From an uncultured Eubacteriales bacterium (GTDB lineage: Bacteria > Bacillota > Clostridia > RUG12999), in the NCBI GenBank assembly GCA_964592375.1, contig CAZQDP010000001.1, positions 12,751-76,750 of the forward strand: 64,000 nt of DNA, given 5' to 3'. The notes below the pieces were generated by a model. It saw nothing but the letters and a program-made list of their open reading frames with translations. It had not been told where the DNA came from and ran no database searches. Each line of letters opens with the position of its first letter. Position 1 is the stretch's first letter. The position numbers and the translations under genes are program-made. Below, piece by piece: positions 8,819 through 36,692 of the stretch.

Positions 8819-9335
8819 ACTCAAGGGAATACTTGAAGCAGTATTGTTTGCATCTGCTTGCCCGGTTGCATTAGAAGAGCTTGTGACCATCACAAATGAG
8901 GAAGAACAGTTTGTATTGCAGGCCATTATGCAGATGCAAAAGGAATATGAGAGTGAAGGCAGGGGCATTGCACTTCTGCGGCTTGAGAGCGCTTACCAGC
9001 TTTGCACAAAGAGCAGCTATTTTGAGTATGTGATAAAGCTCATTGAGCCCAGGCGTGTGCAGCCTCTTTCCAATGCCGCACTCGAAACGCTTTCCGTTGT
9101 TGCTTATAATCAGCCCGTAACCCGTTCAACCATTGAATTTGTCCGTGGCGTGAACAGTGACGGCGCTTTAGGTAGGCTAATTGAAAGAGGACTTGTAGAG
9201 GAATGCGGCAAGCTTGATACTCCAGGAAAGCCTTTGATTTATAAAACAACGGATGAATTTTTGCGTTGCTTTGGGCTTTGCTCAATAGAGGAGCTACCGG
9301 TCATTGATCATGTGCCTCTTACAAATTCGCAGTGA
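8793..9335 (+). CDS. scpB: Segregation and condensation protein B
   Basis: The ILEAVLFAS motif and the following winged-helix repeats are typical of ScpB. The start is ambiguous: there are in-frame ATGs at 8787, 8793, 8799 and 8805. Confidence 0.8.
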   Translation: MKMTMNISKLKGILEAVLFASACPVALEELVTITNEEEQFVLQAIMQMQKEYESEGRGIALLRLESAYQLCTKSSYFEYVIKLIEPRRVQPLSNAALETLSVVAYNQPVTRSTIEFVRGVNSDGALGRLIERGLVEECGKLDTPGKPLIYKTTDEFLRCFGLCSIEELPVIDHVPLTNSQ

Positions 9336-19941: not shown

Positions 19942-20406
19942 ATGCAAAATTTTAAGTACTTCTTCGTTTTCATTTTCGCACTCATTCTTGCGAGCAGTCT
20001 TATTTCCTGCGCAGGTATTGTGCAAAAAAAAGAGGCTAGGGGGATAGAGGGCAATGGCATAAGCGAAGGCGGCAGTGCGAAGGCACAGCAAAATGTGGAG
20101 GAGATAGTGGATGGTAATTTCAAATGGCCTACCAAAGAAATTGGCAATCTGCCTCGTCTAAAAGGGACAATCAATGGTATTACAAAGGAAGAGAACAGCT
20201 GCAATATCAGCATTGAAAATGTATCTGAACAGGATGCAGAAAAGTATATGGAGATGCTCAGAGGCAAATTTTCGGACACCAAAACGGAATATGCAACAAA
20301 AGGGGTAAGCCTGGTGTATATGGGTTCCGGCGCGGATTATGACGTGATGTTTACATATAGCTATGCGGATAAATTTTCCGTATTGATGCTTGCAAAAAAA
20401 AGTTAA
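19942..20406 (+). CDS. Hypothetical lipoprotein
   Basis: It has a signal peptide with the lipobox LISC. A sigma-A-like promoter (extended -10 TGGTATAAT near 19888) lies upstream, and it is 25 nt upstream of tyrS. Confidence 0.55.
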   Translation: MQNFKYFFVFIFALILASSLISCAGIVQKKEARGIEGNGISEGGSAKAQQNVEEIVDGNFKWPTKEIGNLPRLKGTINGITKEENSCNISIENVSEQDAEKYMEMLRGKFSDTKTEYATKGVSLVYMGSGADYDVMFTYSYADKFSVLMLAKKS

Positions 20407-20430
20407 ATTGATTGAAATGGAGAGAATATC

Positions 20431-21654
20431 ATGGTAAATGTTTTTGATGTGTTAAAAGAAAGAGGTCTGATTGCACAGACCACCCACGAAAAGGAAATTC
20501 GTGATCTTCTTGCGAGCGAAAAGGTTACATTTTACATAGGCTTTGACCCCACTGCGGACAGCCTGCATGTGGGGCATTTTCTGCAAATGGTGGTCATGCG
20601 CCATATGCAGATGGCCGGGCACAGACCGATTGCCATCTTGGGCGGTGGGACAACCATGGTGGGTGATCCCACGGGAAAGACAGATATGCGAAAAATGCTT
20701 TCACAAGCGGAAATCCAGTCCAATGCAGATAAGTTCAAAGTGCAAATGTCAAAATTCATTGACTTTTCGGAAAATAAGGCGCTGATGCTTAACAATGCAA
20801 GCTGGCTTCTGGAACTAAATTATGTGGATTTTCTGCGTGAGATTGGCGTACATTTCTCGGTCAATCGCATGCTTACATTTGATTGTTTTAAATCAAGGCT
20901 TGAAAAAGGACTTACTTTTATTGAATTTAATTATATGCTGATGCAGAGCTATGATTTTTTAAAGCTATTCCAGAATTATGAATGCAAGTTAGAGCTTGGC
21001 GGTGATGATCAGTGGTCCAATATTTTAGGGGGCATTGATCTGATTAGAAAAGTGGAAGGCAAAGAGGCCTATGGGATGACCTTTACACTACTGACCACCT
21101 CAGAGGGCAAAAAAATGGGCAAAACGGAAAAAGGGGCTGTATGGCTGGATCCGCAAAAGACCTCGCCATATGATTTTTATCAGTACTGGCGTAATGTAGA
21201 GGATGCGGATGTGATCAAATGCTTAAAGCTCATCACCTTTGTGCCAATGGCACAAATTGAGCAGCTTTCCGGCTTAGAAGGCGCAGGGCTCAATGATGCA
21301 AAAAAACTGCTCGCCTATGAGATTACAAAGCTTGTCCATGGCGCAGAGGAAGCGGATAAGGCAAAGGATGCCGCAGAGGCCCTGTTCGGAGGCGGTGGTA
21401 GTTTGGAAAATATGCCGACTACCCATGCAAGTGCGCAGGATTTTGCCGGGGGCATGAATATTTTGGATTTACTGGTTGCGACCGGACTTGCTCCTTCAAA
21501 GGCGGAAGGGCGCCGACTGGTGATGCAGGGCGGCATAGCGGTGGCAGGTGAAAAGGTTTCCGGCGTGGATTTTGCCATTTCCTCCGATTTGTTTGAAGAT
21601 GGGCAGCTCGTCATTAAAAAAGGTAAAAAAGTGTATCATCGGGTTGTGATATGA
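20431..21654 (+). CDS. tyrS: Tyrosyl-tRNA synthetase
   Basis: It has the HIGH motif (HVGHF), KMSKS (KMGKT) and a C-terminal S4 domain. Confidence 0.95.
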
Positions 21655-22079
21655 ACAGGATAGGCAAGCATTTTATCAGAAGAATGATTGTACTTGCGTT
21701 GCTTACGGTTGTGATTGTGGCGATGTATGGTGCAATGAAAAAGAACGTGGAAAACACCGATGGCATTATGATAAAAAGCATTGAGCAAATAGGCCCGAGA
21801 GTGCAAATCAGCGGCGAGATTACCTCGCCATATCGCAGCTATGAAGGCGTTAGCTATACCAATCAAAACAATGCCACATACGTTAAAATTTATACTGTAT
21901 CTGCCATATGGGGCAAGCAAAAGGACTTTTCGCTCAGCGTTGCAGATACCACTAAAATATATTTAGTGGATGAGAAGAAAACCATTCGTATATGGGAGAA
22001 GGATGAGAGTCAAAAGATACCGCACGAATCACTTAGCGGAGAGATAATATCAGGCGAGGAGAAAACGGGTGAAGAGTAA
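21651..22079 (+). CDS. Hypothetical membrane-anchored protein
   Basis: It has an N-terminal TM helix and an acidic C-terminus, and overlaps the tyrS stop. Confidence 0.4.
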
Positions 22080-22575
22080 GCAGCTATACCAGCAAGCGTA
22101 TGCAATTTTAAATCATACAACGCCACTTTCGGTGGACTGCGGTCGTTTGTGTGAAAATGCCTGTTGCAAAAGTGATGGCGAAGAGGAGTGCGGAATGTAT
22201 CTGTACCCCGGTGAAACTGCAATGTTTCAAGGGCAAACGGATAATTTTAAAATAGAAAAATCGGACTTTACATGGGGAACAAAGAGCCGAAATGTACCCA
22301 TACTCTTTTGCAAGTCGCCATGCAACCGTCATTTTCGGCCACTGTCTTGCCGAATTTTTCCGCTAGTGCCATATATTGAGGGCGGAACACTTCGAATAAT
22401 GATGGATCCAAGAGGAAAAAGGGTTTGTCCTTTGGCAAAGGCAATGAAAACGCAAGATCTCTTGGAGCAGTTTGTTCATAAAGTGGAGGTTATTTTTCGA
22501 TTTTTCATAAAAGATTTGGAAATGCGTGCGTACATTGAAGAGCAGAGTAGACTCATTGATGAATGGGAGCTGTAA
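22069..22575 (+). CDS. YkgJ-family Cys-cluster (putative zinc/iron-chelating) protein
   Basis: It has the CGRLCENACC motif plus later cysteines (CKSPCNRHFRPLSC, C...C), and overlaps the upstream ORF by 11 nt. Confidence 0.5.
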   Translation: MKSKQLYQQAYAILNHTTPLSVDCGRLCENACCKSDGEEECGMYLYPGETAMFQGQTDNFKIEKSDFTWGTKSRNVPILFCKSPCNRHFRPLSCRIFPLVPYIEGGTLRIMMDPRGKRVCPLAKAMKTQDLLEQFVHKVEVIFRFFIKDLEMRAYIEEQSRLIDEWEL

Positions 22576-22586
22576 CGGAGGCACAC

Positions 22587-24638
22587 ATGGAACTGCTAAG
22601 TAGCGACATCAAGTATATAAAAGGGGTGGGCCAAGCTCGAGCAGGGCTATTGGCAAAAATGGGGATATTCACCATAGAGGATATGCTCTATTTTTTTCCT
22701 CGCTATGTTGAGGACAGAAGGCAGAGCACGGATTTATATATCATTCAAAGTGGAGAAAATATTTGCATTTCAGCCACGGTATGCTCACTTGTGGCAGAGC
22801 AAAGAACCAAAGGGAAAATGAAAGTATATAAAATGCTAATCAAAACAGACAGAGAAATGCTAGAAGCAGTATGGTTTAACAATGAGTATGTAAAAAAATA
22901 CTTTCAAATTGGGGATGCTTTTACTTTTTATGGCAAGCTGGAAACGAAATTTGGAAAATGGCAGCTTATTAATCCCACCTATGAAAGGGCAGGGGAGGAT
23001 ATACACACCGGAAGGGTTGTACCCGTGTATCATTTGACTGCAAATTTACATCAAAAAACCATCAGACAGATAGCAAGCGTATGCATTGAAACCACCAAGG
23101 GATGCCTAAGTGAATATATCCCCACAGGACTACTAACAAAATATGGCCTTTGTGAAATTAATTTTGCCATCGCTTCCATCCATTTTCCGAAAGACATGGA
23201 AGATTATGAACAAGCAAAACGCAGACTGGTTTTTGAAGAGCTTTTGTTTTTGCAAATCGGTTTATTTTATGTGCGTGCTAAAAGGCAACAAAAAAATGGT
23301 CCTCTGTTTCATGTGCAGGAAGTAATGATGCCATTTACTCAAAAACTGCCATTTACCCTCACCGGCGCACAGCATAAAGTGCTTCATGAAATCTACCGGG
23401 ACTTATCAAGCAAAAAGCCCATGAGTCGCATGGTGCAAGGGGATGTAGGCTCAGGCAAAACCATTCTTGCCTTTGGCGCCGCATATGCGGCCATGGAAAA
23501 CGGCTATCAGTCTGCATTCATGGTGCCAACGGAAGTGCTTGCAATGCAGCATTTTAATACGGCACTGACCCTTTTTCCGGAAGAGGCAGTGGCGCTGCTA
23601 ACGGGGAGCGTTTCAGGAAAAAGAAAAAAAGAACAAATAGAAAAAGTTGCAACCGGCCGTGCGAAGATTGTCATTGGAACACATGCACTGCTCGAGAACA
23701 ATATAGCATTTCAAAAATTGGGTCTTGTGATAACAGATGAACAGCATAGGTTTGGCGTTGCGCAGCGTTCAACCCTGATGGAAAAAGGGGATAACCCACA
23801 TTTGCTGGTGATGTCTGCTACGCCCATTCCTCGTACTTTGGCATTGATTTTATACGGCGATTTGGATATTTCCATCGTCGGCGAGCTTCCCCCGGGGAGG
23901 CAAAAGATAGATACTTTTGTGGTGGAAGAGAGTATGCGAAGCAGAATTTATGCGTTTATGAAAACACTTATTGATAAGGGCAGGCAGGTGTTCATCGTTT
24001 GCCCCATGGTGGAAGAATCTGAACTCGTGGATATCAAAGCCGCCACAACCTTGGCGGAAATCCTATCACAGCAGGTTTTTTCAGAATACTCGGTGCAAGT
24101 GTTGCATGGGAAAATGAAACCATCCGAAAAAAATGATATTATGCATCGGTTTTCCATGGGAGATATTCAGGTATTGGTATCCACCACCGTTATTGAAGTG
24201 GGGATTAATGTACCCAATGCCACGGTGATGATGGTAGAAAATGCAGAACGATTTGGTCTTGCACAGTTGCATCAAATCAGAGGCAGGGTGGGCAGGGGCA
24301 TTGACAAATCATATTGTATTTTGCTATGCGGCTGTGGCAGCAAGAAGGCGCAGGAAAGGCTAGATGTACTTGCCAAAACCAATGATGGGTTTGTGATATC
24401 CGAAAAGGATTTGCAACTGCGAGGGCCGGGAGATTTTTTAGGCACACGTCAGCACGGCTTGCCGGAACTGCGATTAGCAAATCTATTTTTTGATGCGTTA
24501 GCACTAAAAAATGCCCAGGAAGCAGCCGGCGAAATCATTTCAAATGACCCTATGCTAGAGCGCCCAGAGCATCAACTGCTTCGAAAGCGTACGGAGCGAA
24601 TGTTTGCAAGTAGCTTTGAAAGGGCAACCATTAATTAA
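22587..24638 (+). CDS. recG: ATP-dependent DNA helicase RecG
   Basis: It has an N-terminal wedge domain, the helicase Walker A GDVGSGKT, the DEQHRFGV box and C-terminal helicase motifs. The start at 22587 is set by RBS ACGGAGG; the ORF is open from 22563. Confidence 0.9.
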   Translation: MELLSSDIKYIKGVGQARAGLLAKMGIFTIEDMLYFFPRYVEDRRQSTDLYIIQSGENICISATVCSLVAEQRTKGKMKVYKMLIKTDREMLEAVWFNNEYVKKYFQIGDAFTFYGKLETKFGKWQLINPTYERAGEDIHTGRVVPVYHLTANLHQKTIRQIASVCIETTKGCLSEYIPTGLLTKYGLCEINFAIASIHFPKDMEDYEQAKRRLVFEELLFLQIGLFYVRAKRQQKNGPLFHVQEVMMPFTQKLPFTLTGAQHKVLHEIYRDLSSKKPMSRMVQGDVGSGKTILAFGAAYAAMENGYQSAFMVPTEVLAMQHFNTALTLFPEEAVALLTGSVSGKRKKEQIEKVATGRAKIVIGTHALLENNIAFQKLGLVITDEQHRFGVAQRSTLMEKGDNPHLLVMSATPIPRTLALILYGDLDISIVGELPPGRQKIDTFVVEESMRSRIYAFMKTLIDKGRQVFIVCPMVEESELVDIKAATTLAEILSQQVFSEYSVQVLHGKMKPSEKNDIMHRFSMGDIQVLVSTTVIEVGINVPNATVMMVENAERFGLAQLHQIRGRVGRGIDKSYCILLCGCGSKKAQERLDVLAKTNDGFVISEKDLQLRGPGDFLGTRQHGLPELRLANLFFDALALKNAQEAAGEIISNDPMLERPEHQLLRKRTERMFASSFERATIN

Positions 24639-24724
24639 CAATCCCAACACCACAAAGTCATCAAATTTTGCGATTAGATGATTTTTAAAACCAACACCCA
24701 TATCAATATTGTTCACTTTCACCA

Positions 24725-24753
24725 TTGACATTCATTGTATAATTGTATACAAT
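24725..24753 (+). promoter_or_regulatory. Sigma-A-type promoter (TTGACA, 17 nt spacer, TACAAT) with a 12-bp perfect palindrome ATTGTATACAAT overlapping the -10
   Basis: Read directly from the sequence upstream of the aconitase gene. Confidence 0.55.
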
Positions 24754-24779
24754 AATACAAAAAACAAGGAGAGGGTTAT

Positions 24780-26717
24780 ATGGGACTTAGCTTAGCTCAA
24801 AAAATCATTCAGGAGCATTTGGTTAGCGGTTCTTTGGCATGCGGTAGCGAGATTGCCATTCGTATTGACCAAACGCTCACACAGGACTCCACGGGAACAA
24901 TGGCATATCTTGAATTTGAAGCAATTGGATTACCTAGAGTGAAAACAAAGAAATCCGTTGCCTACATAGACCACAATACGCTGCAAGCAGGTTTTGAAAA
25001 TGCGGATGATCATCAATATATTCAAACCGTTGCTGCAAAGCATGGCATTTATTTTTCAAAGCCGGGCAACGGCATTTGCCATCAGGTACAACTGGAACGT
25101 TTTGGTGTTCCGGGCATGACCCTTCTGGGATCGGATAGCCATACGCCGACTGGTGGCGGTATTGGCATGCTTGCCATTGGTGCAGGCGGCCTGGATGTTG
25201 CGGTGGCCATGGGCGGCGGTGCATATTATTTGACCATGCCTCAAATTTGCAAAGTAAATTTGAAAGGCAAATTATCACCATGGGTCAGTGCAAAGGATGT
25301 TATTTTAGAGGTCCTGCGCATACTCAGCGTGAAGGGCGGCGTGGGCAAGGTAATTGAATACGGTGGTGAAGGCATTAGAAGCCTTAGTGTGCCCGAAAGA
25401 GCCACCATCACCAATATGGGTGCAGAGCTGGGTGCAACCACTTCAATTTTCCCAAGTGATGAGATGACAAAGCAGTTTATGCGTGCGCAGGGCAGGGAGC
25501 AAGACTGGATAGAACTCTTACCAGATTTGGATGCAAAGTATGATGAAGTGATTGATATTGATTTAGCCGCTTTGGTGCCGATGGCCGCCAAGCCTCACAG
25601 TCCGGACAATGTGGATGCAATTGAAAATATAGGCAAAATCAAAGTAAATCAAGTGGCAATCGGTAGCTGTACCAATTCATCGCTCATGGATATGATGAAG
25701 GTTGCTTCCATTTTAAAAGGAAAAACCGTGCATCCGGAAGTAAGCCTTGTCATTTCCCCAGGCTCGAAGCAGGTACTTACCATGCTGGCTCAAAATGGAG
25801 CACTTTCAGACATGGTAGCCGCCGGAGCGCGTATATTGGAATCTGCCTGCGGCCCTTGTATCGGTATGGGGCAGGCTCCTCAAACGAATGCAGTTTCTCT
25901 TCGTACGTTTAATCGCAATTTTGAAGGACGAAGCGGTACAAAATCGGCAGATGTGTATTTGGTCAGTCCAGAGGTGGCTGCGGTTTCAGCGCTTACTGGT
26001 GTGCTGAGCGACCCCAGAGAATTTGGCCCTGCACCAATCATTGAAATGCCAGGCCAATTCATTTTAAACGACAATATGGTGCTGAGTCCTGCACCGGAGA
26101 ATAATCAAATAGAAGTGATAAGAGGCCCGAACATTAAGCCATTTCCGGTGAATAGCCCCATGGAGAAAACCATGGAAGGCAAAGCACTGCTAAAGGTGGG
26201 GGATAATATCACAACCGACCATATTATGCCCTCCAATGCAAAGCTTTTGCCGTATAGATCCAATATACCGTACTTATCTGAGTATTGCCTTGTGCCTTGC
26301 GATCCGCAGTTTCCGACTCGTGCCAAAGAAAATGGTGGCGGCATCATTATCGGTGGATCCAATTACGGTCAGGGCTCTAGCCGTGAACATGCTGCACTTG
26401 CGCCCCTTTATTTAAAAATCAAAGCGGTGATTGCAAAATCCTTTGCCCGCATTCATATGGCAAACCTAATCAATTCCGGCATACTTCCTCTGGAGTTTGT
26501 AGATGGAAATGATTATGACAAAATTGATGAAATGGATATACTGAGCATTGAAAATGCGCAGCAGCAGCTAAAGGGTGGCGAAATCATTACAGTAAAAAAT
26601 ATGACAAAAGGCATCAGCATACAAACCAAAGCTACTTTGTCTGACCGGCAGCTTCAAATGATGCTTGTCGGTGGGCTTCTCAATTATACAAAGCGCTGCA
26701 GTGAAAACGCCAAATAA
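24780..26717 (+). CDS. Aconitate hydratase (about 645 aa clostridial-type aconitase)
   Basis: It belongs to the aconitase family and has Cys-ligand regions (SCTNSS, CGPCIG) and a swivel domain. It is followed by an isocitrate dehydrogenase gene. Confidence 0.8.
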   Translation: MGLSLAQKIIQEHLVSGSLACGSEIAIRIDQTLTQDSTGTMAYLEFEAIGLPRVKTKKSVAYIDHNTLQAGFENADDHQYIQTVAAKHGIYFSKPGNGICHQVQLERFGVPGMTLLGSDSHTPTGGGIGMLAIGAGGLDVAVAMGGGAYYLTMPQICKVNLKGKLSPWVSAKDVILEVLRILSVKGGVGKVIEYGGEGIRSLSVPERATITNMGAELGATTSIFPSDEMTKQFMRAQGREQDWIELLPDLDAKYDEVIDIDLAALVPMAAKPHSPDNVDAIENIGKIKVNQVAIGSCTNSSLMDMMKVASILKGKTVHPEVSLVISPGSKQVLTMLAQNGALSDMVAAGARILESACGPCIGMGQAPQTNAVSLRTFNRNFEGRSGTKSADVYLVSPEVAAVSALTGVLSDPREFGPAPIIEMPGQFILNDNMVLSPAPENNQIEVIRGPNIKPFPVNSPMEKTMEGKALLKVGDNITTDHIMPSNAKLLPYRSNIPYLSEYCLVPCDPQFPTRAKENGGGIIIGGSNYGQGSSREHAALAPLYLKIKAVIAKSFARIHMANLINSGILPLEFVDGNDYDKIDEMDILSIENAQQQLKGGEIITVKNMTKGISIQTKATLSDRQLQMMLVGGLLNYTKRCSENAK

Positions 26718-26735
26718 AGAAAGGAAGAAAATAAA

Positions 26736-27896
26736 ATGAACGATGCGATTAAAATTGCAACTGAAAAATTCTCGCTTCTTTTGGAGCAACAGCTTATGCG
26801 GGCGGAAAAAATCAAAATGGAGAAGGAATTTCTTGATTATGATAAGTTAGATACATTGATTATCGGGGTGACGGGGGGAGATGGCATTGGCCCTGCTATT
26901 ACCGGTCAGGGGCATCGGGTATTGGAGTTTCTTCTCCAAAATGAAGTGAAGGCCGGAAAGGTTGCTTTTAAGGTAATCGATGGACTTACCATTGAGCGTA
27001 GAGCGGCAGAGAATAAAGCCATCACCGATGATGTGTTAGCGGAGCTTAAAGCGTGTCATGTTATTCTCAAAGGGCCCACAACCACACCTCGCGCAGGCGA
27101 CCCATGGCCGAATATTGAAAGCGCCAATGTTGCGATGAGAAAAGAACTGGATCTGTTTGCCAATGTAAGGCCGGTGAAGGTGCCTGAAAAGGGAATAGAC
27201 TGGACATTTTTCAGAGAAAATACAGAAGGCAGCTATGCACTTGGCAGCAATGGCATACATGTGAATGAAGATGTTGCATTTGATTTTTGCGTAGCCACAA
27301 CGGAAGGCTGCGAGAGAATCGCAAAAGCGGCATTTGAATATGCAAAAAAAGCCGGCAAGAGTAGGGTGACTGCTGTAACCAAAGCAAATGTCGTCAAGAC
27401 CACAGACGGTAAGTTTTTAAATCTTTGCCAGAAGATATCGGCGCAGTATCCGGATATTGCATTTGATGATTGGTATATTGATATTATGACCGCCAAACTG
27501 ATTGATGAAAAAAGAAGAACCGACTTTAAGGTGTTTATTCTACCCAATCTCTACGGTGATATTTTGACGGATGAAGCAGCGGAATTCCAAGGCGGCGTAG
27601 GAACTGCCGGCAGTGCAAACATTGGCAAACGATATGCAATGTTTGAAGCCATTCACGGCTCTGCCCCGAGAATGGTAGACGAAGGAAGAGCGCAGTATGC
27701 AGACCCCTGCAGCGTGCTAAGAGCATGCGTGATGCTACTGGAGCACATCGGGCATGGAGATAAGGCTGCAAAGCTTGAGACGGCACTGGATATGTGCATG
27801 TATACTGAAAAGAAACTTGTTATTACGGGTAGGGATACGGGTGCGACCTGCTCGCAATTTGCCGATTATGTTATGGAAACGGTGCAAAAGCTGTAA
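26736..27896 (+). CDS. Isocitrate dehydrogenase (isocitrate/isopropylmalate dehydrogenase family)
   Basis: It has the family motifs GGDGIGP, NLYGDILTDEAA and GS..P, and is adjacent to the aconitase gene. Confidence 0.75.
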   Translation: MNDAIKIATEKFSLLLEQQLMRAEKIKMEKEFLDYDKLDTLIIGVTGGDGIGPAITGQGHRVLEFLLQNEVKAGKVAFKVIDGLTIERRAAENKAITDDVLAELKACHVILKGPTTTPRAGDPWPNIESANVAMRKELDLFANVRPVKVPEKGIDWTFFRENTEGSYALGSNGIHVNEDVAFDFCVATTEGCERIAKAAFEYAKKAGKSRVTAVTKANVVKTTDGKFLNLCQKISAQYPDIAFDDWYIDIMTAKLIDEKRRTDFKVFILPNLYGDILTDEAAEFQGGVGTAGSANIGKRYAMFEAIHGSAPRMVDEGRAQYADPCSVLRACVMLLEHIGHGDKAAKLETALDMCMYTEKKLVITGRDTGATCSQFADYVMETVQKL

Positions 27897-27932
27897 ACCA
27901 TGTAAGCTTCCATTATGGAAAGGATGGTTGAT

Positions 27933-28589
27933 ATGCCCCAAACCCAGGAAAACTTATCTTTAGGCAATCGGGTATTTGACCGACTGAGAGAACGGATTTT
28001 AGATGGGGAATTAGCTACCGGTCAGGGTCTTATCGAAGCTAAGCTATCGCAGGAATACGGCGTGAGCCGGACTCCTGTACGAGATGCGGTACATCGCTTG
28101 GAGCTCGAAGGATTGGTTAAAATTGTACCAAATAAAGGTGCCATTGTCTGTGGCCTTTCCGACAGGGATATTTTAGACATCTATCAAATTCGTATGAAGT
28201 TAGAAGCAATGGCGGCTTGCCTTGCTGCCCAAAACATCAACGAAGAAGCACTTATGCAGCTAAAGGAAAGCGTAGAGCTTTTGGAGTTTTATATCATCAA
28301 AGGAAATAGTGTGGGACTTGGCCTTTGTGATAGTAAGTTCCACAGAATCATATATGAAGCTTCCAAAAGCCGTCCGCTGGCGAGTACACTTAAAAATTTG
28401 CACAGCTATAGCAGACGAGCCGGGAAGGAATCCTTTCGAATAGAAGGCAGACCGGAAAAGGTTCTCACAGAGCATCGGCTGATTTATGAAGCCATTGAAA
28501 AAAGGGATCAGGAAAAAGCCCAGCAACTTGCTCAGGTGCACATTGAAAATGCCTTGGCAAGCTATAGCCGTCAGCTTGACATGAGATAG
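27933..28589 (+). CDS. GntR family transcriptional regulator with an FCD ligand-binding domain
   Basis: It has an N-terminal wHTH (SQEYGVSRTPVRDAVHRLELEGLV) and a C-terminal FCD-like helical domain. Confidence 0.8.
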   Translation: MPQTQENLSLGNRVFDRLRERILDGELATGQGLIEAKLSQEYGVSRTPVRDAVHRLELEGLVKIVPNKGAIVCGLSDRDILDIYQIRMKLEAMAACLAAQNINEEALMQLKESVELLEFYIIKGNSVGLGLCDSKFHRIIYEASKSRPLASTLKNLHSYSRRAGKESFRIEGRPEKVLTEHRLIYEAIEKRDQEKAQQLAQVHIENALASYSRQLDMR

Positions 28590-28637
28590 CATAACTTTGC
28601 GGATGCAACGATTATGGGTACAGAACGGAGGCTTTTT

Positions 28638-29285
28638 ATGGCTACACTTGGCAACAAAAAGGTTTCGGCTGTTGTGATTAGAAGATTACCTCGCTATTAC
28701 AGATATTTGGGGGAGCTTCTATCCAATAAGATTACAAGAATTTCATCGGCAGAGCTGAGCCGGAGAATGGGCGTTACTGCATCTCAAATTCGGCAGGACC
28801 TCAACTGTTTTGGGGGATTTGGTCAGCAGGGATATGGATATAATGTTGAAAACCTGTATATGCAAATGGGTAAAATTTTGGGTCTTTCGAAGAAACGCAA
28901 AATGATCATCGTCGGTGCAGGTAATTTGGGTCATGCCATTGCAAACTACGCCAATTTTGAAAAGCGTGGGTTTGCGCTCTGTGGTATCTTTGATAACGAT
29001 AAAAAGAAAACGCAAGGGGAAATTGCAGGCATGCAAATTCAGCATATCAAAGCGTTAGAGGCTTTTATCAAAGAGATGTCTGTGGATATTGCCGTGCTAT
29101 GTGTGCCGAAGCTATATGCACAAGGTATGGCAGAGAGGCTGGCAAGAGCCGGCATTAAAGGAATATGGAACTTTTCCTACACGGAGTTATTACCGCCACA
29201 GGGAGTGGTGGTGGAAACCGTACACCTGAGCGACAGTCTGATGACGCTGTCATGCAGAATAAATCAGGAGACGAATGAAACATGA
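28638..29285 (+). CDS. rex: Redox-sensing transcriptional repressor Rex
   Basis: It has the RLPRYYRYL wHTH motif and a Rossmann NADH-binding region (IVGAGNLG). Confidence 0.85.
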   Translation: MATLGNKKVSAVVIRRLPRYYRYLGELLSNKITRISSAELSRRMGVTASQIRQDLNCFGGFGQQGYGYNVENLYMQMGKILGLSKKRKMIIVGAGNLGHAIANYANFEKRGFALCGIFDNDKKKTQGEIAGMQIQHIKALEAFIKEMSVDIAVLCVPKLYAQGMAERLARAGIKGIWNFSYTELLPPQGVVVETVHLSDSLMTLSCRINQETNET

Positions 29286-30079
29286 AGGTATTTGGTTTTG
29301 TAGGTGATAGTGGTACCGGAAAAAGCTATCGTGCCATGTGGGTAGCCAAGGAGAAAGGGCTTCCTTGCATGATTGATGATGGTCTGCTGATTATGGGAGG
29401 CCGAATTGTTGCGGGCAAATCCGCCAAGAGAGAAAAAACCATGTTTGCATCGGTAAGGCGCGCCATTTTCGAAGATCCGGCACATATCGCAGAGGTAAGC
29501 ACGAAAATAAAAATTTTAGCTCCCGATGGCATTTTAATTTTAGGCACTTCAAAACGAATGGTAGAAAGAATTGCCGCCAGGCTATCCCTGCCTGAAATCA
29601 CAGAATATGTGATGATAGAGGATGTGGCTTCAAAAGACGAAATCCAAAAGGCACAGGATATGCGCATGAAGCAGGGGAAACATATTATTCCCGTTCCGGC
29701 CTTTGAAGTGAAAAAGGACTTTTCGGGATATTTCATCGATCCGCTACGGATTTTCTTTCATGGCAAAGAAAAATATAGTGCGGAAAAAACCATTGTTCGC
29801 CCAACCTATAGCTATTTGGGTGATTATACACTCTCCAGAAGTGCAACAGCATCCATTTGCCGGCATGAAGGGAATAAAGTTTCGGGCATTCATGTGGTGA
29901 GTGTCAAGGTTCAGCATACGCCAATTGGGGCACATATTGAAATTGACGTTACAATGGAAATGGGGTGCGATATTCGCAAGGCAGCATACAAGGTTCAAAA
30001 TAATGTAGCGGCTGCTTTAGAGGAATATGCGGCACTTGTGGTGTCTAAAATTGACATTAAGGTGATGTCATTAAAATGA
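29282..30079 (+). CDS. Fusion of an HprK-C-like P-loop domain with an Asp23/Gls24-family domain
   Basis: The N-terminal VGDSGTGKSY...CMIDDG resembles the HPr kinase C-terminal Walker A (GDSGVGKSE...ADD). The C-terminal roughly 110 aa (VSGIHVVSVKV...IEIDVTMEMGCDIRKAAYKVQNNV...) fits the Asp23/DUF322 pattern. Confidence 0.55.
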   Translation: MKVFGFVGDSGTGKSYRAMWVAKEKGLPCMIDDGLLIMGGRIVAGKSAKREKTMFASVRRAIFEDPAHIAEVSTKIKILAPDGILILGTSKRMVERIAARLSLPEITEYVMIEDVASKDEIQKAQDMRMKQGKHIIPVPAFEVKKDFSGYFIDPLRIFFHGKEKYSAEKTIVRPTYSYLGDYTLSRSATASICRHEGNKVSGIHVVSVKVQHTPIGAHIEIDVTMEMGCDIRKAAYKVQNNVAAALEEYAALVVSKIDIKVMSLK

Positions 30080-30092
30080 AGTAGGTGAGCAT

Positions 30093-30794
30093 ATGCCACT
30101 TTTTGCAATAGCGGATCTTCATTTATATAAAGGGATTAAAAATAAACCCATGGATGTTTTTGGCCCTGCGTGGGATAAGCATATGGAACGCCTTGCGGAA
30201 AACTGGCGACATAGCGTAACAAATGAGGACACCGTACTCATCCCAGGCGATATTTCTTGGGCAACCTATTTAGAACAGGTGCTTTTGGATCTAGAATATA
30301 TTGATGAGCTTCCCGGTAAAAAAATCATATCCAAAGGAAATCACGATTATTGGTGGACAACCCTTCGTAAAATGAACGGATTTGTGCAGGAACATGAAAT
30401 GAAAAGCATTTCCTTCTTGCACAATCATTTTTTTTCTTATGAACAGTATGGTATCTGCGGCACCAGATTATGGGATTTACCCGGTAAGGGTCAAACCCCC
30501 GAGGATGAAAAAATATTTGCAAGAGAACTCATTCGCCTTGAGATCTCTTTAGAAGCAGCAGAAAAAGAAGGTTTTGATGAAAAAATCGTCATGCTTCACT
30601 ACCCACCGGCACGAACGGGTGAGGATTTGCACGAGAGGATTGCCGCCCTTTTTGAGAAATACCATGTTGTGAAATGTGTTTTTGGGCATGTGCATCATAC
30701 AAAAAACGTTTTTTGTGGCACGATTGGACAAACGCAATATGTGCCTGTGATGGCAGATTATATAGATTTTTCGCCTTTGCAAATCGGTATTTGA
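30093..30794 (+). CDS. Calcineurin-like metallophosphoesterase
   Basis: It has the metallophosphoesterase motifs ADLHL, GDISW and GNHDYW, and later HVHH. Confidence 0.75.
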   Translation: MPLFAIADLHLYKGIKNKPMDVFGPAWDKHMERLAENWRHSVTNEDTVLIPGDISWATYLEQVLLDLEYIDELPGKKIISKGNHDYWWTTLRKMNGFVQEHEMKSISFLHNHFFSYEQYGICGTRLWDLPGKGQTPEDEKIFARELIRLEISLEAAEKEGFDEKIVMLHYPPARTGEDLHERIAALFEKYHVVKCVFGHVHHTKNVFCGTIGQTQYVPVMADYIDFSPLQIGI

Positions 30795-30925
30795 AGTCTT
30801 ATTTTGCAGATGATATTTGGATATGCTAAAATTGTCGTAAAATGCTCCGTAAGCCAAAAAAATCGTTGACATTGCAGATGGGCTGTTATATAATAATATC
30901 ATATTTTACAAAGAGGTTACAAAAA

Positions 30926-31717
30926 ATGAACATTTCATTTATCGGTAACGGAAATATGGCAGGTGCCATCATTGGCGGTCTTCTAAAGATGGGGAGTTTT
31001 GAGGCATCAGATATTGCAATAAGCGATGTGAGCGGGCAACGCCGCCAAGATGCTTCGCAAAAGGGCTTTCGCGTTTTTTCCTCAAATTTTGAGGCTGCAT
31101 CTGCCTCAGACATCATTGTGCTTGCGGTAAAACCTATCGTCATGGCAAAGGCATTAGAAGATATTTGCACATGCGAAGGAAAGCTTGTCATTTCAATTGC
31201 GGCAGGCATTTCAAGTGATTTTATCAGGCAGAGGCTCCATCCTTCCTGTCGCATTGTGAGGGTAATGCCAAATACTCCCGCGCTCTATGGTGAGGGCATG
31301 AGCATGATTTGTGAGGATGCAAATGCTTCTAGTGATGATATGCTGATTGTGAAAACGATTTTTGAAAGTGTAGGCAAGGTAGATTTTCTGCCCGAAAAGC
31401 TCATTGACGCTGCAATGGCAGTCGGAAGCTCGGGCCCGGCTTACATTTTTATGATTATTGAAGCCTTGGCAGACGGTGGGGTGCTTTGCTCCTTACCCAG
31501 AGATAAAGCATATGCTATCGCCGCCCAGACCGTGCTTGGTTCTGCAAAAATGGTGTTGGAAAGCGGCATGCATCCGGGTCAGCTAAAGGACATGGTATGC
31601 TCCCCGGGAGGGACTACCATTGAAGCGATGGCAGTGCTTGAAAAGCGGGGCGTTCGTGGCGCAATCATGGAAGCGGTGAAAGCATGTGCCGATAAAGCAG
31701 GCAGACTTGCAAAATAA
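30926..31717 (+). CDS. proC: Pyrroline-5-carboxylate reductase
   Basis: It has the NAD(P)-binding N-terminus FIGNGNMAGAIIGGL and a C-terminal P5CR dimerization region. The start is at 30926 after a TTGACA-17-TATAAT promoter at 30865..30893. Confidence 0.85.
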   Translation: MNISFIGNGNMAGAIIGGLLKMGSFEASDIAISDVSGQRRQDASQKGFRVFSSNFEAASASDIIVLAVKPIVMAKALEDICTCEGKLVISIAAGISSDFIRQRLHPSCRIVRVMPNTPALYGEGMSMICEDANASSDDMLIVKTIFESVGKVDFLPEKLIDAAMAVGSSGPAYIFMIIEALADGGVLCSLPRDKAYAIAAQTVLGSAKMVLESGMHPGQLKDMVCSPGGTTIEAMAVLEKRGVRGAIMEAVKACADKAGRLAK

Positions 31718-31875
31718 CTTGTACATTTATTTATGAATAATGGCATAAATGCATCCACTATCGCAATATAATTTAGTATCATCCTTCTGCATGTCCGGCA
31801 TGGCAACGCCGAAGCATCTGGATGAAAATGATATTGCGGTAAGGGAAACCCCCGCACAGAGTTTTGGGGGAGCAT

Positions 31876-32472
31876 ATGCGAAATAATAAGATAAAACGGC
31901 ATATTGGCAGTAATTTTCGGCTGTATTTTCTTTTTTCATGCATATTGGTACTGGGAGTTGTCATTGGTGGTATTATCGCTAATTTGGTACCGCAGGAAAC
32001 CTGTAAAAAGTCAGCAGAATCATTAGGCCTAGCCATTTCAAATCTTTCTAAAGGCACAGCGCAGTGGACTGTGATTTATTTTTTTACATCATCCTCCAAA
32101 CCGGTATTATCGATGTGGCTTGCCGGATTTTGGCGATATGGTATATGGATTATCATGGCAACACTTTGTTATAAAGGTGCGGCAATGGGGTTTTCGGTGG
32201 CACTTTTCGTTCGAATGTACCAAATGCGCGGAGTGGCACTATCCGCGGTGGGAATACTACCGCAACATATCATTTTGCTGCCGTTATATGTCATCGTTGC
32301 TGTACTAAGTATAGATATAGGTCGCGGCATGGTCACTTCTCGAAGCTACAAAATGTTACCGACATATATTGCAATATTGATTGCTTCAGTGGCACTTTGC
32401 GTGGCAGCTACCGCCATTGATACCTATATTTCTTCTTGGCTCATCGGCAGCCTTGCATATATGATTGAATGA
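31876..32472 (+). CDS. spoIIM: Stage II sporulation protein M
   Basis: Multi-TM protein that aligns with B. subtilis SpoIIM (FRLYFLFSCILVLGVVIGG; LPQHIILLPLYVIV; ATAIDTYISS). It lies next to a xerD-like gene, as in Bacillus (ripX-fur-spoIIM). Confidence 0.8.
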   Translation: MRNNKIKRHIGSNFRLYFLFSCILVLGVVIGGIIANLVPQETCKKSAESLGLAISNLSKGTAQWTVIYFFTSSSKPVLSMWLAGFWRYGIWIIMATLCYKGAAMGFSVALFVRMYQMRGVALSAVGILPQHIILLPLYVIVAVLSIDIGRGMVTSRSYKMLPTYIAILIASVALCVAATAIDTYISSWLIGSLAYMIE

Positions 32473-32490
32473 AAGAGAGGGTAATTAACC

Positions 32491-33267
32491 ATGGCAGCTT
32501 TGGAATTATATTCAAATTATCTTGAGTCTGAAACAAAGGTTTCAGCAAATACATATCAATCATATATGAGAGACATTCGAATTTTCGGTGATTATCTGCA
32601 TGAAACGAATGGCCGGCGCAATTATGAAGGTGTGAAAAAGCAAACCCTATGCATTTACATAGACCATTTAGAAAAGCAGGGAAAAGCCAAGTCCTCCATT
32701 TACAGAGCCATGGCATCGCTACGAAGCTTTTATAAGTATTTGCTTTATGCAGGGCTGGTTGATGTAAACCCTGCCATGGAGATAGATTCCCCCAAGGTGG
32801 ACAGAAAGGCAATGCGCGAGCCGCTGACCTCGCACGAGACGCAAACTTTGCTACAACAGCCCGTTTGCAGTGATTACAAGGGGTATCGAGATAAAGCAAT
32901 GATGGAACTGCTGTGCTCAACGGGAATTAAAATCAGTGAACTCATTGCCCTTGATGTGGAGGATGTTGTCATTGACGATGGCTATATTTTGTGCAATGTA
33001 GGCGGCAAAAAGAATAAAGTCAGCATTGGTCCTATGGCACTTTTTGCACTGAAAAATTATTTAAGCAGTGCCAGATTTTCTTTTCTATTTGAGGATTGTA
33101 CTTGCAAGGCATTGTTTTTAAACACCAGCGGAAATCGCTTGACTCGGCAAGGGCTATGGAAAATCATTAAAACCTATACACTAAAAGCAAATATCGCAAA
33201 AGAAATATCGCCCCATTCACTAAAAAAGGTATCCGGCAACCAAAAAGCTACCGCAGGAATATATTAA
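32491..33267 (+). CDS. XerD-like tyrosine recombinase paralog, probably catalytically degenerate
   Basis: It has an N-terminal SAM-like core-binding domain. Box I reads TGIKISEL (Arg replaced by Lys), the HxxR box is replaced by HSLKK, and the C-terminus ends at ...ATAGIY without the HxxR...LGH...Y segment. Confidence 0.65.
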   Translation: MAALELYSNYLESETKVSANTYQSYMRDIRIFGDYLHETNGRRNYEGVKKQTLCIYIDHLEKQGKAKSSIYRAMASLRSFYKYLLYAGLVDVNPAMEIDSPKVDRKAMREPLTSHETQTLLQQPVCSDYKGYRDKAMMELLCSTGIKISELIALDVEDVVIDDGYILCNVGGKKNKVSIGPMALFALKNYLSSARFSFLFEDCTCKALFLNTSGNRLTRQGLWKIIKTYTLKANIAKEISPHSLKKVSGNQKATAGIY

Positions 33268-33304
33268 TCTTTTAAAAAGGGTAGCTTTGCAGCTACCCTT
33301 TTCG

Positions 33305-34087
33305 CTATTCAGTGGCTTTTTTCAGCGCATAAACAAACTTTGAAAGCTCCTCGGTAGCTTCTTTGCCGTAATCTTCAATGATTTTAACGATGGCACTGCC
33401 TACAATTATGCCGTCAGCATATTTAATAAGCCCTTCTACCTGCTGTGCGGTGGATATACCAAATCCTACTGCAGTGGGGCAAGTGGCATATTTCTGAATT
33501 TGTTCAAAGAAATGTCTGAAATCAGTATGGAAACTGCTTCGAACACCGGTTACGCCAAGGGAGGACACGCAGTATAGAAATCCTTTGCTATGGCTAGCGA
33601 TTTTTTCAATGCGAGACCCGGAGGTGGGTGCCACCAGATTGATGATGTGGACATCACCGGAAAATGCCTCAAATTCCCCTCTCTCTTCAAATGGCAAATC
33701 GGGTATAATCACGCCATCAATTCCCACTTCTTTGCAACGCGTAAAAAATAAATTGGAACCAAATTTATATACGGAATTTGCGTACATCATCAGTAGTAGG
33801 GGAAGCTCACATTTTTTTCGCAATCGTCTTACCATTTCAAAAATCATGTCTAAATGCACACCGTTTTTCAGAGCACGTTCACTGGCTCTTGAGATAATAG
33901 GGCCCTCTGCCACTGGGTCTGAAAAAGGCACACCAATTTCAATGATATCAGCACCGCTTTTTTCCATGGCCAATATGAATTCCTCCGTGGCATAGATATC
34001 GGGATCTCCGGCGGTAACAAAGGTAATTAAAGCTTTCTTCCCATGCGCTTTTAATTTCTCGAAAGTATTATCAATCCTATTCATCAA
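33305..34087 (-). CDS. trpA: Tryptophan synthase alpha chain
   Basis: It has the TrpA motifs [15 protein letters not shown] and GFGIS; 260 aa. Confidence 0.9.
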
Positions 34088-35261
34088 TCATTTCCCCCCT
34101 GTATTTCGCAATACTTTGTACATCCTTATCACCACGACCGGAAAGGCATATGACTAAAATACTGTCCTTTGGCATGGTAGGAGCGATCTTCATCGCCGCG
34201 GCTACTGCATGTGCGCTTTCAATTGCAGGGATAATCCCTTCGCTCTGCGTGAGAAACTCAAAAGCACATACGGCCTCTTCATCTGTAATGGCTGTATATT
34301 CTGCTCGGCCACTATGGTGCAGATAGGCGTGTTCCGGTCCTATACCGGGATAGTCAAGTCCGGCAGAAATGGAATGCACTTTATCAATCTGGCCATGTTC
34401 ATTTTGTAAAAATACAGATTTCATACCGTGAAAAATGCCATTACTCCCACGGGTAAGGGTTGCGGCGTGCATTTTTGTATCAACGCCGTGGCCTGCGGCC
34501 TCAGCACCAATTAAGGTAACGCTGGGATCATCAATAAAGTCATAAAACATGCCCATCGCATTGCTACCACCGCCGACGCAAGCCACCACACAGCTTGGTA
34601 GTTTTCCTTCCTTTTCAAAAAGCTGTGTTTTCGTTTCTATGCCGATAATCTTTTGAAAATCACGCACCATGGTGGGGTACGGGTGAGGGCCCATAACAGA
34701 ACCAAAAAGATAAAAGGTGTCTTCCACATGCATTGTCCAATATCGCATTGCCTCATTGACTGCATCCTTCAGCGTACCGGTACCGGAAGAGGCTTCGGTA
34801 ACACGTGCGCCAAGCATTTTCATTCGATACACATTTAGAGCCTGACGAGAAATATCTTCTGTGCCCATAAAGATCTCGCAGTCCATGCCAAAGAGTGCGG
34901 CTGCGGTGGCGGTGGCAACGCCATGCTGGCCTGCACCTGTTTCTGCAACAATTCGCTTTTTATTCAGTCGCTTTGCAAGCAAAGCCTGCCCTAACACATT
35001 ATTGATTTTATGCGAGCCGGTATGGTTTAAATCTTCTCGTTTAAGATAAATTTTAGCTCCGCTAAGTTTTTTTGTCATATTTCGGGCTTCATACAGCAAG
35101 GATGGTCTGCCGGCATAGTTTGCATATAAATCATACAGCTCACGCTGAAAATCTTTATCATCCTTCATGGCATAATATACCGATTCAATTTCTTCAAGAG
35201 CACTCATCAAGGTTTCAGGTACGTATTGACCGCCAAACTGTCCAAATCTACCGTTTTTCAT
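34077..35261 (-). CDS. trpB: Tryptophan synthase beta chain
   Basis: It has the PLP-lysine region HTGSHKINN and GGGSNAMG. Confidence 0.95.
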
Positions 35262-35889
35262 TTTCCTTCCTCCTTATTGCATCAATGAATTCTTTTATTT
35301 TTGCAGGGTCTTTTTTACCACCCGTCTCCACACCGCTACTCACATCAATGCCATAGGGAACCGCCGTGCATATGGCTGATTGAACATTGTGGATATGAAG
35401 CCCACCGGCCAAAATGATGGGTTTTTCAATCATACTCACCGCTCTTTTAGCAAGTGACCAATTTGCGAGCTTTCCGCTACCGCCATAGGACCCCGGACTA
35501 TCGGCATCAATCAGTAACTTATCGGCAAGCGTGGCACCCGCCAAAAGCTGTGTTTCGTTCACGGGTCGTATTGCTTTCCAAACTTCAATATGAGGGATAT
35601 GGTCTTTGAGATTTTTGATGAAAGCTTCATCTTCATCGCCATGCAACTGCAAAACATCAAGAGAGGCGTGGTGTGCACAGGAAGCAATAAAAGAAAGATC
35701 GGAATTAACGAACACACCAACGGATAAAATTCGCCTATCAAGCTGATCCCTTAGCTTGGCAGCCTGCACAATAGAAACCTGACGAGTGCTTTTCGCAAAG
35801 ACAAAACCAATGTAGTCTGGCATGCATGCATTAACTGTACAAATATCTTCTTTTCTTGAAAGGCCGCATATTTTAATTTTTGTCATGCC
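35248..35889 (-). CDS. trpF: Phosphoribosylanthranilate isomerase
   Basis: The internal start MTKIKICGL is typical of TrpF; the ORF is open further upstream and overlaps trpC. Confidence 0.75.
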
Positions 35890-36692
35890 TTGCTCCTTAA
35901 ACTGCGCATTGTGCTTGCAATATCGCCGCTTCGCATGAGTGCCTCGCCAATGAGCACACCATGGACACCGCAGTTTTTTAAAAACAATATATCCTCTGCG
36001 GTAGAAATACCGCTCTCGGAGATGATTACACAATCTTTGGGAACAAAACCTGCCAATTCTTCGGTCGTATGCAAATCAACATGAAAGGTGTTTAAATTGC
36101 GATTATTGATACCGATAATTCTTGCACCAATTCTGATTGCTTTTTCAAGCTCTGTGATATGATGCGTTTCAACCAAGGCATGCAGTCCTAAAGTATGGGC
36201 AGTGCAGAGTAGGTCCGCCATTTCTTCCTCGCTGAGCATGGCAGCTATCAGTAGAACTGCGTCTGCACCAAGCACTCTGGATTCATAGAGCTGATAGGAA
36301 TCAAATATAAAGTCTTTTCGCAATATGGGAAGCTGTACCATGCTTCGGATGGCTTTTAAATACTCGCTACTGCCGCCAAAATACGTTTCCTCCGTTAAAA
36401 CGGAAATGGCATTCGCACCAGCTACTTCATATGCTTTGGCGATGGCCACCGGGTCGAAATTTTTGCAAATGAGTCCCTTGGAAGGGGAGGCCTTTTTCAC
36501 CTCGGCGATGATGGATGGAAAGCGACTTGCAAGTGCCGACGCAAAGTCTAGCACCGGGCGCTTTTCTTCCAAAGCCTCTGCAATCATGGTTTTTGGACTT
36601 TTCATGGATTTTTCTCTTGCAAGCTGTTCTTTTCTGCTACATAAAATCTTATCTAAAATCATGGCAAACCGGTACCTCCTTTTAAGCAACAT
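35883..36692 (-). CDS. trpC: Indole-3-glycerol phosphate synthase
   Basis: It has the IAEVKKASPSKG motif and an IGINNRNL region. Confidence 0.85.
   Translation of the reverse strand: MLLKRRYRFAMILDKILCSRKEQLAREKSMKSPKTMIAEALEEKRPVLDFASALASRFPSIIAEVKKASPSKGLICKNFDPVAIAKAYEVAGANAISVLTEETYFGGSSEYLKAIRSMVQLPILRKDFIFDSYQLYESRVLGADAVLLIAAMLSEEEMADLLCTAHTLGLHALVETHHITELEKAIRIGARIIGINNRNLNTFHVDLHTTEELAGFVPKDCVIISESGISTAEDILFLKNCGVHGVLIGEALMRSGDIASTMRSLRSKA

Follow-up and report, generated by a model that had tools for sequence, protein, structure and literature searches.

The stretch analysed here, 64,000 nucleotides (nt) of contig CAZQDP010000001.1 (assembly GCA_964592375.1) of an uncultured Eubacteriales bacterium, referred to below as the window, carries an open reading frame (ORF) of 265 amino acids (aa) on the forward strand (29282..30079, +) in which, as in its full-length homologs, a P-loop kinase-like domain, a conserved connector and an Asp23 domain follow one another. 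The initial annotation of this DNA had placed the ORF at the same position, and the features that it described, namely the overlap with the stop codon of the preceding rex gene, a Walker A loop and a CMIDDG segment, were all read again in the sequence. The ATG codon (29282-29284) shares the tetranucleotide ATGA with the TGA of rex (29283-29285) and is preceded, about 10 nt 5', by AGGAG. Before 29279 the frame of the ORF is closed, which makes this ATG the earliest possible start; it is also the point at which the homologs begin. The gene is predicted to be translationally coupled, in this genome, to rex (28614..29285, +), which encodes a bona fide redox-sensing repressor (NCBIfam Rex equivalog, 315.9 bits against a cut-off of 233; Pfam Put_DNA-bind_N and CoA_binding). 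On the other side, 13 nt after the ORF, lies a gene for a calcineurin-type metallophosphoesterase (30093..30794, +; Pfam Metallophos, 48.5 bits).

The encoded protein belongs to a large family. A search of 5.8 billion proteins gave 7996 matches among the 8000 candidates scored, and the family comprises at least 7996 clusters at 90% identity. The best 120 matches are full-length (265-300 aa) and share approximately 46-55% identity with the query; with thousands of full-length homologs at about 50% identity, the gene can be placed far beyond chance. A scan of one genome per species detected relatives in at least 589 species, essentially all of them Clostridia or Bacillota, including the genera Acetivibrio, Ruminiclostridium, Petroclostridium, Natronincola, Geosporobacter, Caldicoprobacter, Anaerophilus and Monoglobus. 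One typical member (locus L013, JBLMYQ010000029.1) is located on a contig of a metagenome-assembled genome (MAG) labelled 'Deltaproteobacteria bacterium', the other loci being of Clostridia or Bacillota; this contig is probably mis-binned or mislabelled.

A profile of the N-terminal domain alone, compared with 1.84 billion cluster representatives, matched 885 clusters (50% identity) at E ≤ 1e-3 and 686 at E ≤ 1e-10, and nearly all of these proteins are about 270 aa long (265-290 aa). Ten longer outliers were scanned against Pfam: eight contain an Asp23 domain plus unannotated extensions, P0244 has a generic AAA match only, and P0214 has CWB2 repeats. From the profile clusters and the outlier scans, the P-loop-Asp23 fusion is judged to be the obligate architecture of a sharply delimited Clostridia family, and not a one-off. 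The covalent joining of a P-loop to an Asp23 domain, proposed in the initial annotation, is therefore real (the Walker A motif is present and Pfam Asp23 scores above its threshold), and the view that such a fusion would be unusual has to be given up. Source databases name the homologs "Asp23/Gls24 family envelope stress response protein" (the generic NCBI label), "YloU" or, in a few cases, "YloU/adenylate kinase family enzyme". The initial annotation was to count as refuted if the fusion belonged to a common, already annotated family of known function; the family is indeed common and bears a label, but no function goes with it. In P0214 (548 aa) the P-loop N-domain (residues 1-128) is followed by three CWB2 cell-wall-binding repeats in place of Asp23; this may be a genuine variant or a chimera produced by assembly or gene calling. 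In the literature no paper on a P-loop-Asp23 fusion was found; YloU and YqhY of C. difficile are stand-alone proteins (PMC6459899).

The P-loop domain covers residues 1-133 (29282..29680, +) and is composed, in this order, of strand 1, the P-loop, helix 1, strand 2, a beta-hairpin, two helices, strand 3, a helix, strand 4 and a lid-like helix. Its Walker A motif GDSGTGKS (residues 8-15; 29303..29326, +), part of VGDSGTGKSY (residues 7-16), aligns with the P-loops of GntK, AroK, Adk, T4 Pnk and HprK/P. The CMIDDG segment (residues 29-34) contains the invariant Asp pair D32-D33 (29375..29380, +) at the end of strand 2, a candidate Mg2+ ligand and catalytic base, which falls on ADD of HprK/P. The helix after strand 4 (residues 118-131) carries the invariant R128 (29663..29665, +), a candidate lid arginine. 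Across 51 homologs, the residues invariant in this half of the protein include (i) G8, G11, G13, K14, S15, D32, D33 and G34 of the Walker A and DDG motifs, and (ii) A44, G45, S47, K49, G88, T89, S90, R128, G132 and K133; the polar H134, just beyond the domain, is invariant as well. Altogether 23 of the 133 positions do not vary, and the mean majority frequency is 0.67. Strand 3 has neither a Walker-B acid nor a catalytic Glu, and the invariant G88-T89-S90 stands in that place.

No Pfam or NCBIfam model covers the P-loop half or the fusion in the window protein or the 51 homologs scanned. The Pfam signals obtained in the N-domains are weak: AAA_33 in 31 of the 51, IPT in 17, Cytidylate_kin in two, and generic AAA and ABC_tran besides. 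No solved structure proved detectably related by sequence: a single-sequence search of the PDB returned noise (a mannanase, E 0.3), and profile searches (E ≤ 10) picked up ABC ATPases and designed proteins, in each case only over the P-loop stretch. When the AlphaFold2 model of the full-length protein was compared with the PDB, only ferredoxin-like matches to the C-terminal domain were obtained (MamM/CDF C-terminal domains, E ~1e-3), which is uninformative on the N-domain; this domain was therefore modelled alone, with a mean predicted local distance difference test score (pLDDT) of 93.4 and a predicted template modelling score of 0.87. In this model D32, D33 and R128 sit in the secondary-structure elements expected of P-loop kinases, the kinase branch of the KG division of P-loop NTPases. 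The Foldseek neighbours listed for the model include Cmk and adenylate, gluconate, shikimate, APS and thymidylate kinases, all of them weak matches (E ≥ 5.8e-3, template modelling (TM) score ≤ 0.51).

Profile comparisons with hhalign, for which the partner sequences were checked against the PDB, ranked gluconate kinase (probability 84.5%) and shikimate kinase (82.3%) highest, followed by adenylate kinase (44.8%), HprK/P (38.2%, or 42.6% with a two-sequence HprK profile) and T4 Pnk (35.9%, the lowest of the five tested). Every one of these alignments spans only strand 1, the P-loop, helix 1 and strand 2. If they are extended in register, D33 would coincide with the catalytic Asp of strand 2 in three of these enzymes (T4 Pnk, D35; GntK, D40; AroK, D36). 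We tentatively regard the N-terminal part of the protein (residue 1 to about 160) as a minimal, divergent kinase-type P-loop domain.

The connector is the most conserved part of the protein. Its first motif, H-x-IPVP-x-FE-x-KK-x-FSGYF (residues 134-151; 29681..29734, +), has a mean majority frequency of 0.93 and eight invariant positions out of 18, more than any other segment of the family, and its second, VRPT-x-SY-x-G (residues 171-180; 29792..29821, +), has a frequency of 0.89 and four invariant positions out of ten (R173, P174, Y178 and G180). In the full-length AlphaFold2 model both domains are confident and the connector (residues 134-183) has a pLDDT below 50. Secondary structure is predicted for a strand at 139-142 and a helix at 153-159, and these elements, together with the kinase-like topology, suggest that the P-loop core may be completed by part of the connector, which would supply its strand 5 and its last helix. 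Residues 134-151 would then probably be strand 5 of this core and part of the active site or of an interface.

The Asp23 domain (residues 181-265; 29822..30076, +) has the predicted order helix, strand, strand, helix, strand, with pLDDT values of 80-93. Residues 207-263 align with positions 49-106 of the 108-position Pfam Asp23 model at 30.2 bits, narrowly above the cut-off of 28. All 51 homologs match this model at E ≤ 1 (best 2e-13), one of them (P0168) over model positions 3-105, and the DUF6286 and AmaP models align from residues 180-182 on. The first helix is present but diverged, and one loop is missing. The assignment to Asp23 made in the initial annotation thus holds, with a domain of about 85 residues instead of the 110 proposed. 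It is the least conserved part of the protein, with a mean majority frequency of 0.53 and a single invariant residue out of 85. Proteins of the Asp23 family are among the most abundant and conserved Gram-positive proteins of unknown mechanism.

In the window, the gene is part of a series of genes on one strand: recG, acn (aconitase; 24780-26717, +), icd (isocitrate dehydrogenase; 26736-27896, +), gntR (a GntR/FCD regulator identified with Pfam; 27915-28589, +), rex, the P-loop-Asp23 gene and the phosphoesterase gene, with gaps of at most 24 nt from acn on. The acn-icd-gntR-rex genes and the P-loop-Asp23 gene probably share one transcription unit. A perfect TTGACA-17-TATAAT promoter sequence (30866-30894) is located 3' of the phosphoesterase gene and 5' of the likely true start of proC, so that the unit probably ends with the phosphoesterase gene. 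This promoter falls inside the longest ORF of the pyrroline-5-carboxylate reductase gene (region 30842-30926); translation of proC probably begins at the Met of MNISFIGNG (about 30926), which gives proC a promoter of its own. No paralogs of the P-loop or the Asp23 domain were found elsewhere in the window, and no riboswitch or leader matching Rfam was detected 5' of the gene (window 20000-36000 scanned). Two further observations concern other parts of the window. Two overlapping same-strand ORFs (21651-22079 and 22069-22575; 142 and 168 aa) between tyrS and recG have no Pfam match even at E ≤ 1. A XerD-like recombinase ORF (32491-33267; 258 aa) matches positions 3-134 of the 172-position Phage_integrase model and stops early; it may lack the C-terminal region with the catalytic Tyr and be a truncated or degenerate copy.

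Gene neighbourhoods were compared in 80 related loci, which are those most similar to the query and not a balanced sample. Neighbour families were obtained by unbiased clustering of the neighbouring ORFs, and the loci were grouped into 25 clades at 60% identity. Rex is the most widespread and the tightest neighbour (upstream, same strand; 23 loci, 10 clades, median gap 17 nt), and the adjacency pointed out in the initial annotation is thus kept in other lineages. The OGG glycosylase follows (downstream, same strand; 21-23 loci, 7 clades, 416 nt). The other families are YtxC (upstream; 12 loci, 2 clades, 472 nt), Cmk (downstream; 10 loci, 1 clade, 143 nt), GDH (downstream; 7 loci, 4-5 clades, 341 nt), Nth (upstream; 5 loci, 1 clade, 55 nt) and UvrB (downstream; 5 loci, 1 clade, 124 nt). 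The Rex and OGG adjacencies are independent, with Rex only in 14 loci, OGG only in 12 and both in nine. The gene order acn-icd-gntR-rex-gene recurs in locus L003 and icd-gntR-rex-gene in L004; unrelated contexts were also found, such as an acetyltransferase gene with dnaX (L085) or ytxC (Acetivibrio). A metallophosphoesterase gene is near the gene in none of the 80 loci and is not a conserved partner, which removes one component of the signalling module that the initial annotation had assembled from Rex, the fusion protein and this enzyme.

Several of these loci have features of their own. In one (L045, 400-3232) the gene lies between those of two HhH-GPD DNA glycosylases, in the order Nth-gene-OGG, with gaps of 16 nt to Nth and about 300 nt to OGG. 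In Caldicoprobacter oshimai (L053, 1977-8023) the order is Nth, malic enzyme, the gene, an NfnAB-like oxidoreductase pair and OGG. The ytxC-type loci, those of Acetivibrio mesophilus and related MAGs, have a conserved unit of about 180-270 nt in the gap of 450-600 bp from ytxC to the gene (L001, 5383-6010; L007, L010, L011, L043, L019 and L024, at ~3450-4010). In this unit a near-consensus promoter (TATATTGACAA-17-GATACAATATA) and a 5' hairpin are accompanied by a stretch rich in A/CA and by a long terminator hairpin (GGGAAAGAAAAGAGAGTC...GACTCTCTTTTTCCC). Compensatory changes were seen in only three of its 28 predicted pairs, and neither a conserved ORF nor an Rfam match was found in it; the unit is a candidate small RNA or leader. 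The Rfam scan of the ytxC-type loci detected only unrelated 6S and T-box RNAs, represented in A. mesophilus (L001) by a 6S RNA (8804-9019; 74.6 bits) and a T-box leader (9670-9924; 89.8 bits against a gathering score of 93), the latter located 5' of a Hexapep-family gene, after which comes a gene for a class I tRNA synthetase (Pfam tRNA-synt_1e, CysS C-terminal domain).

Sites resembling the Rex operator (TTGTTAANNNNTTAACAA-like consensus, as cited in PMC8457756) were found in some of the related loci. They are located 51-102 bp upstream of rex in five loci with the rex-gene order, and 87-114 bp upstream of the gene itself in four of the 56 loci without rex. Loci with such box-like sites include L024 (Ruminiclostridium sufflavum), L082 (Anaerophilus nitritogenes), L052 and L015. 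For the loci without rex, dinucleotide shuffles predict 0.62 sites (two of 500 reach four), and the site density of other intergenic DNA predicts 0.97. These counts lend modest support to the gene belonging to the Rex regulon in several lineages. As the gene is placed directly after rex, or has a Rex-box-like site of its own, in many lineages, its expression is likely to be tied to the NADH/NAD+ state.

The explanation that we prefer, tentatively and without calling it probable, is a phosphotransferase that depends on ATP, is tethered to an Asp23 module serving oligomerisation or acting as an adaptor, and is co-expressed with Rex. The N-domain would bind ATP-Mg and pass the gamma-phosphate to an oxygen acceptor. 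From their positions in the motifs, K14 and S15 would bind Mg2+ together with the beta and gamma phosphates, the Asp pair that closes strand 2 (D32 and D33) would serve as Mg ligand and catalytic base, D33 being the base, and R128 would act as lid arginine. An acceptor site might be built by S47, K49, T89, S90, K133 and H134 together with the invariant connector, the acceptor being a conserved small molecule or else an amino-acid residue, either in a partner protein or in the invariant connector itself. The variable Asp23 domain would provide dimerisation, oligomerisation or partner docking, a role proposed from the published behaviour of stand-alone Asp23 proteins, which is treated below.

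Several points weigh against this explanation. No substrate can be named. The alignments end after strand 2, so the assignment to the kinase class rests on topology and a few motifs; one of these, x-D-D at the end of strand 2, is D-x-D in shikimate and gluconate kinases. With residues 134-151 at a pLDDT below 50, the active-site picture is incomplete. As regards Rex, the loci compared were chosen by similarity, about 70% of them have no Rex adjacency, and their neighbourhoods are otherwise variable, so that the adjacency fits inherited synteny as well as it fits function. In the window, no Rex operator was found at up to 2 mismatches, and matches with 3 mismatches are below chance and not at promoters.

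The same evidence can be read in other ways. If the protein is, as the chief alternative has it, not an enzyme but a nucleotide-dependent switch, ATP or ADP would be bound, or ATP hydrolysed very slowly, and the nucleotide state would steer oligomerisation or partner binding of the Asp23 domain, making the protein an energy-charge-sensitive adaptor or scaffold. The replacement of an acidic Walker B or catalytic Glu on strand 3 by the invariant G88-T89-S90 fits such a role, as do the oligomers and adaptors formed by stand-alone Asp23 proteins (PMC6954212; bioRxiv 10.1101/2024.02.19.580884) and the presence of SIMIBI-type dimerising NTPases among the fold matches (BchL, 5.6; GPN-loop GTPases, 5.4 and 5.1; FtsY). 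However, at least 12 invariant polar residues round the P-loop and a near-invariant connector are more than nucleotide binding usually needs, and the Asp pair of strand 2 is typical of phosphotransferases; we consider a switch possible but on balance unlikely. The glycosylase neighbours point instead to DNA, and an enzyme like polynucleotide kinase, processing ends in the base-excision repair of oxidative DNA damage, would account for OGG downstream on the same strand in seven clades, for Nth upstream and UvrB downstream in five loci each, for the Nth-gene-OGG order of L045 and for the metallophosphoesterase gene that follows in the window. Bacterial Pnkp domain sets likewise include a metallophosphoesterase. 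Nevertheless, polynucleotide kinases match the N-domain no better than nucleotide or metabolite kinases do, T4 Pnk giving the weakest hhalign result (36%); the protein has no Arg three residues past the Asp (DxxR in T4 Pnk) and no nucleic-acid-binding domain; the gaps to OGG are often large, with unrelated genes between; and the Nth and UvrB links are each confined to one clade. A repair function is thus improbable.

The metabolic genes nearby would suit a P-loop of the ADP-forming ligase type, which forms an acyl phosphate on a carboxylate substrate by chemistry similar to that of Mur/FolC or dethiobiotin synthetase. That substrate might belong to lipid or amino-acid metabolism, as the links of Asp23 proteins to acetyl-CoA carboxylase and fatty-acid kinase would allow. 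Genes of 2-oxoglutarate and glutamate metabolism are present (acn-icd in the window, GDH downstream in seven loci of 4-5 clades), and the activity of RfaA/YqhY is glutamate-sensitive (bioRxiv 10.1101/2024.02.19.580884), but a domain of only ~135-160 residues lacks the flanking substrate domains of Mur/FolC ligases, and both Foldseek and hhalign favour kinases; we hold this chemistry to be quite improbable. The kinship proposed in the initial annotation, that of an HprK/P-like protein serine kinase/phosphorylase forming a redox-linked phospho-signalling module with Rex and the metallophosphoesterase, started from a likeness that does exist. The pattern GDSGxGKS-x13-(I/V)xDD was aligned by hhalign, which paired VGDSGTGKS...IDDGLLI with TGDSGIGKS...ADDNVEI of HprK/P in an alignment of 33-35 columns (probability 38-43%); the coupling of the gene to rex is tight, and the phosphoesterase gene lies only 13 nt downstream. 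Since a strand-2 Asp is common to P-loop kinases, the resemblance is real but unspecific. The alignment is short and scores under those with gluconate and shikimate kinase, the HprK signature region (LEIRGLGII) and the overall HprK fold were not found in the N-domain, and HprK_C (PF07475) has no match at E ≤ 1 in the window protein and is not among the families listed for the 51 homologs. HprK/P was also absent from the PDB profile searches at E ≤ 10 and from the structural neighbours listed, and the phosphoesterase is missing from 80/80 related loci. Membership of the HprK/P family is largely refuted by this evidence from hidden Markov models (HMMs) and hhalign, and a protein of this kind is very improbable; with no Rex operator found in the window, the redox-linked signalling stays a guess.

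The ATP-dependent phosphotransferase that we prefer has a more specific form, which we consider unlikely: a new class of P-loop phosphotransferase, hard-wired to Asp23 and under Rex control, that would act as a redox-responsive kinase of Clostridia. Its targets could possibly be a conserved metabolite, a partner protein such as Rex or a repair glycosylase, or its own FSGY/RPTxSY connector. If this is true, the role of Asp23 domains could for the first time be approached through an enzymatic activity. In this family the domain is permanently joined to a putatively catalytic P-loop domain, in which the residues resembling an active site do not vary among hundreds of species of Clostridia. Database names refer only to the Asp23 part and leave the better-conserved half of the protein out of sight. 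Should the P-loop domain be a kinase, its substrate could reveal what Asp23 modules are for, and a new output could be added to the Rex-linked redox physiology of anaerobes, including gut and cellulolytic Clostridia; should it be only a nucleotide-binding scaffold, the protein would be an ordinary conserved hypothetical one. The family has a widespread, unstudied P-loop-Asp23 architecture, often placed directly behind rex, and is not surprising in kind; its members are testable conserved hypothetical proteins in which an enzymatic site is plausible and a link to Rex recurs.

Among known systems, HprK/P (PF07475; PDB 1ko7 and 1jb1) shares with the N-domain the Walker A motif GDSGxGKS and (I/V)xDD about 18 residues on, but the N-terminal HprK domain is absent here, and there is no context of HPr or of the phosphotransferase system. 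The best profile and Foldseek matches are to P-loop kinases of the shikimate/gluconate and nucleoside monophosphate types, such as GntK (1knq), AroK (1kag), Cmk and Adk of Escherichia coli, with the common topology of strand 1, P-loop, helix 1, strand 2, insert, strand 3, helix, strand 4 and lid helix. The acidic residues at the predicted end of strand 2 and the invariant Arg of the lid-like helix are candidate counterparts of those in the shikimate, gluconate and nucleoside monophosphate kinases. Unlike in those kinases, the insert between strands 2 and 3 consists of a beta-hairpin and two helices with an invariant AGxSAKxExT motif of its own, and the domain is fused to Asp23; the similarity is weak (alignments of 28 columns, TM ≤ 0.51), and no family HMM reaches its threshold.

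With the stand-alone Asp23/Gls24 proteins (Asp23 of S. aureus, YloU and YqhY/RfaA of B. subtilis; PF03780), the protein shares the Asp23 HMM match and the predicted alpha/beta fold, and, as is typical of them, it is predicted to be cytoplasmic, having no predicted membrane segment. Asp23 oligomerises in vivo (PMC6954212), and RfaA/YqhY is an adaptor that binds AccC and ClpE (bioRxiv 10.1101/2024.02.19.580884). The yloU and yqhY genes occur in conserved operons with yloV and accBC, respectively, so that there, too, an Asp23 module goes with an ATP-using module (PMC5437119). In the family described here, the ATP-binding module is fused to the Asp23 domain and is of the P-loop type, not a DAK2 kinase or a biotin carboxylase, and the Asp23 domain itself is short, without the loop between the first helix and the first strand. 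The membrane anchor AmaP (NCBIfam NF033218) has a C-terminal Asp23-like region that aligns with residues 180-261 at 28.4 bits, far under the cut-off of 55; its N-terminus is a membrane anchor, where a P-loop domain is found here, and no AmaP or DUF2273 genes are among the 14 commonest neighbour families of the 80 loci. By HMM, then, the protein is classified as a member of the Asp23 family distinct from HprK/P, and its N-terminal half as a remote, unclassified relative of the P-loop kinases.

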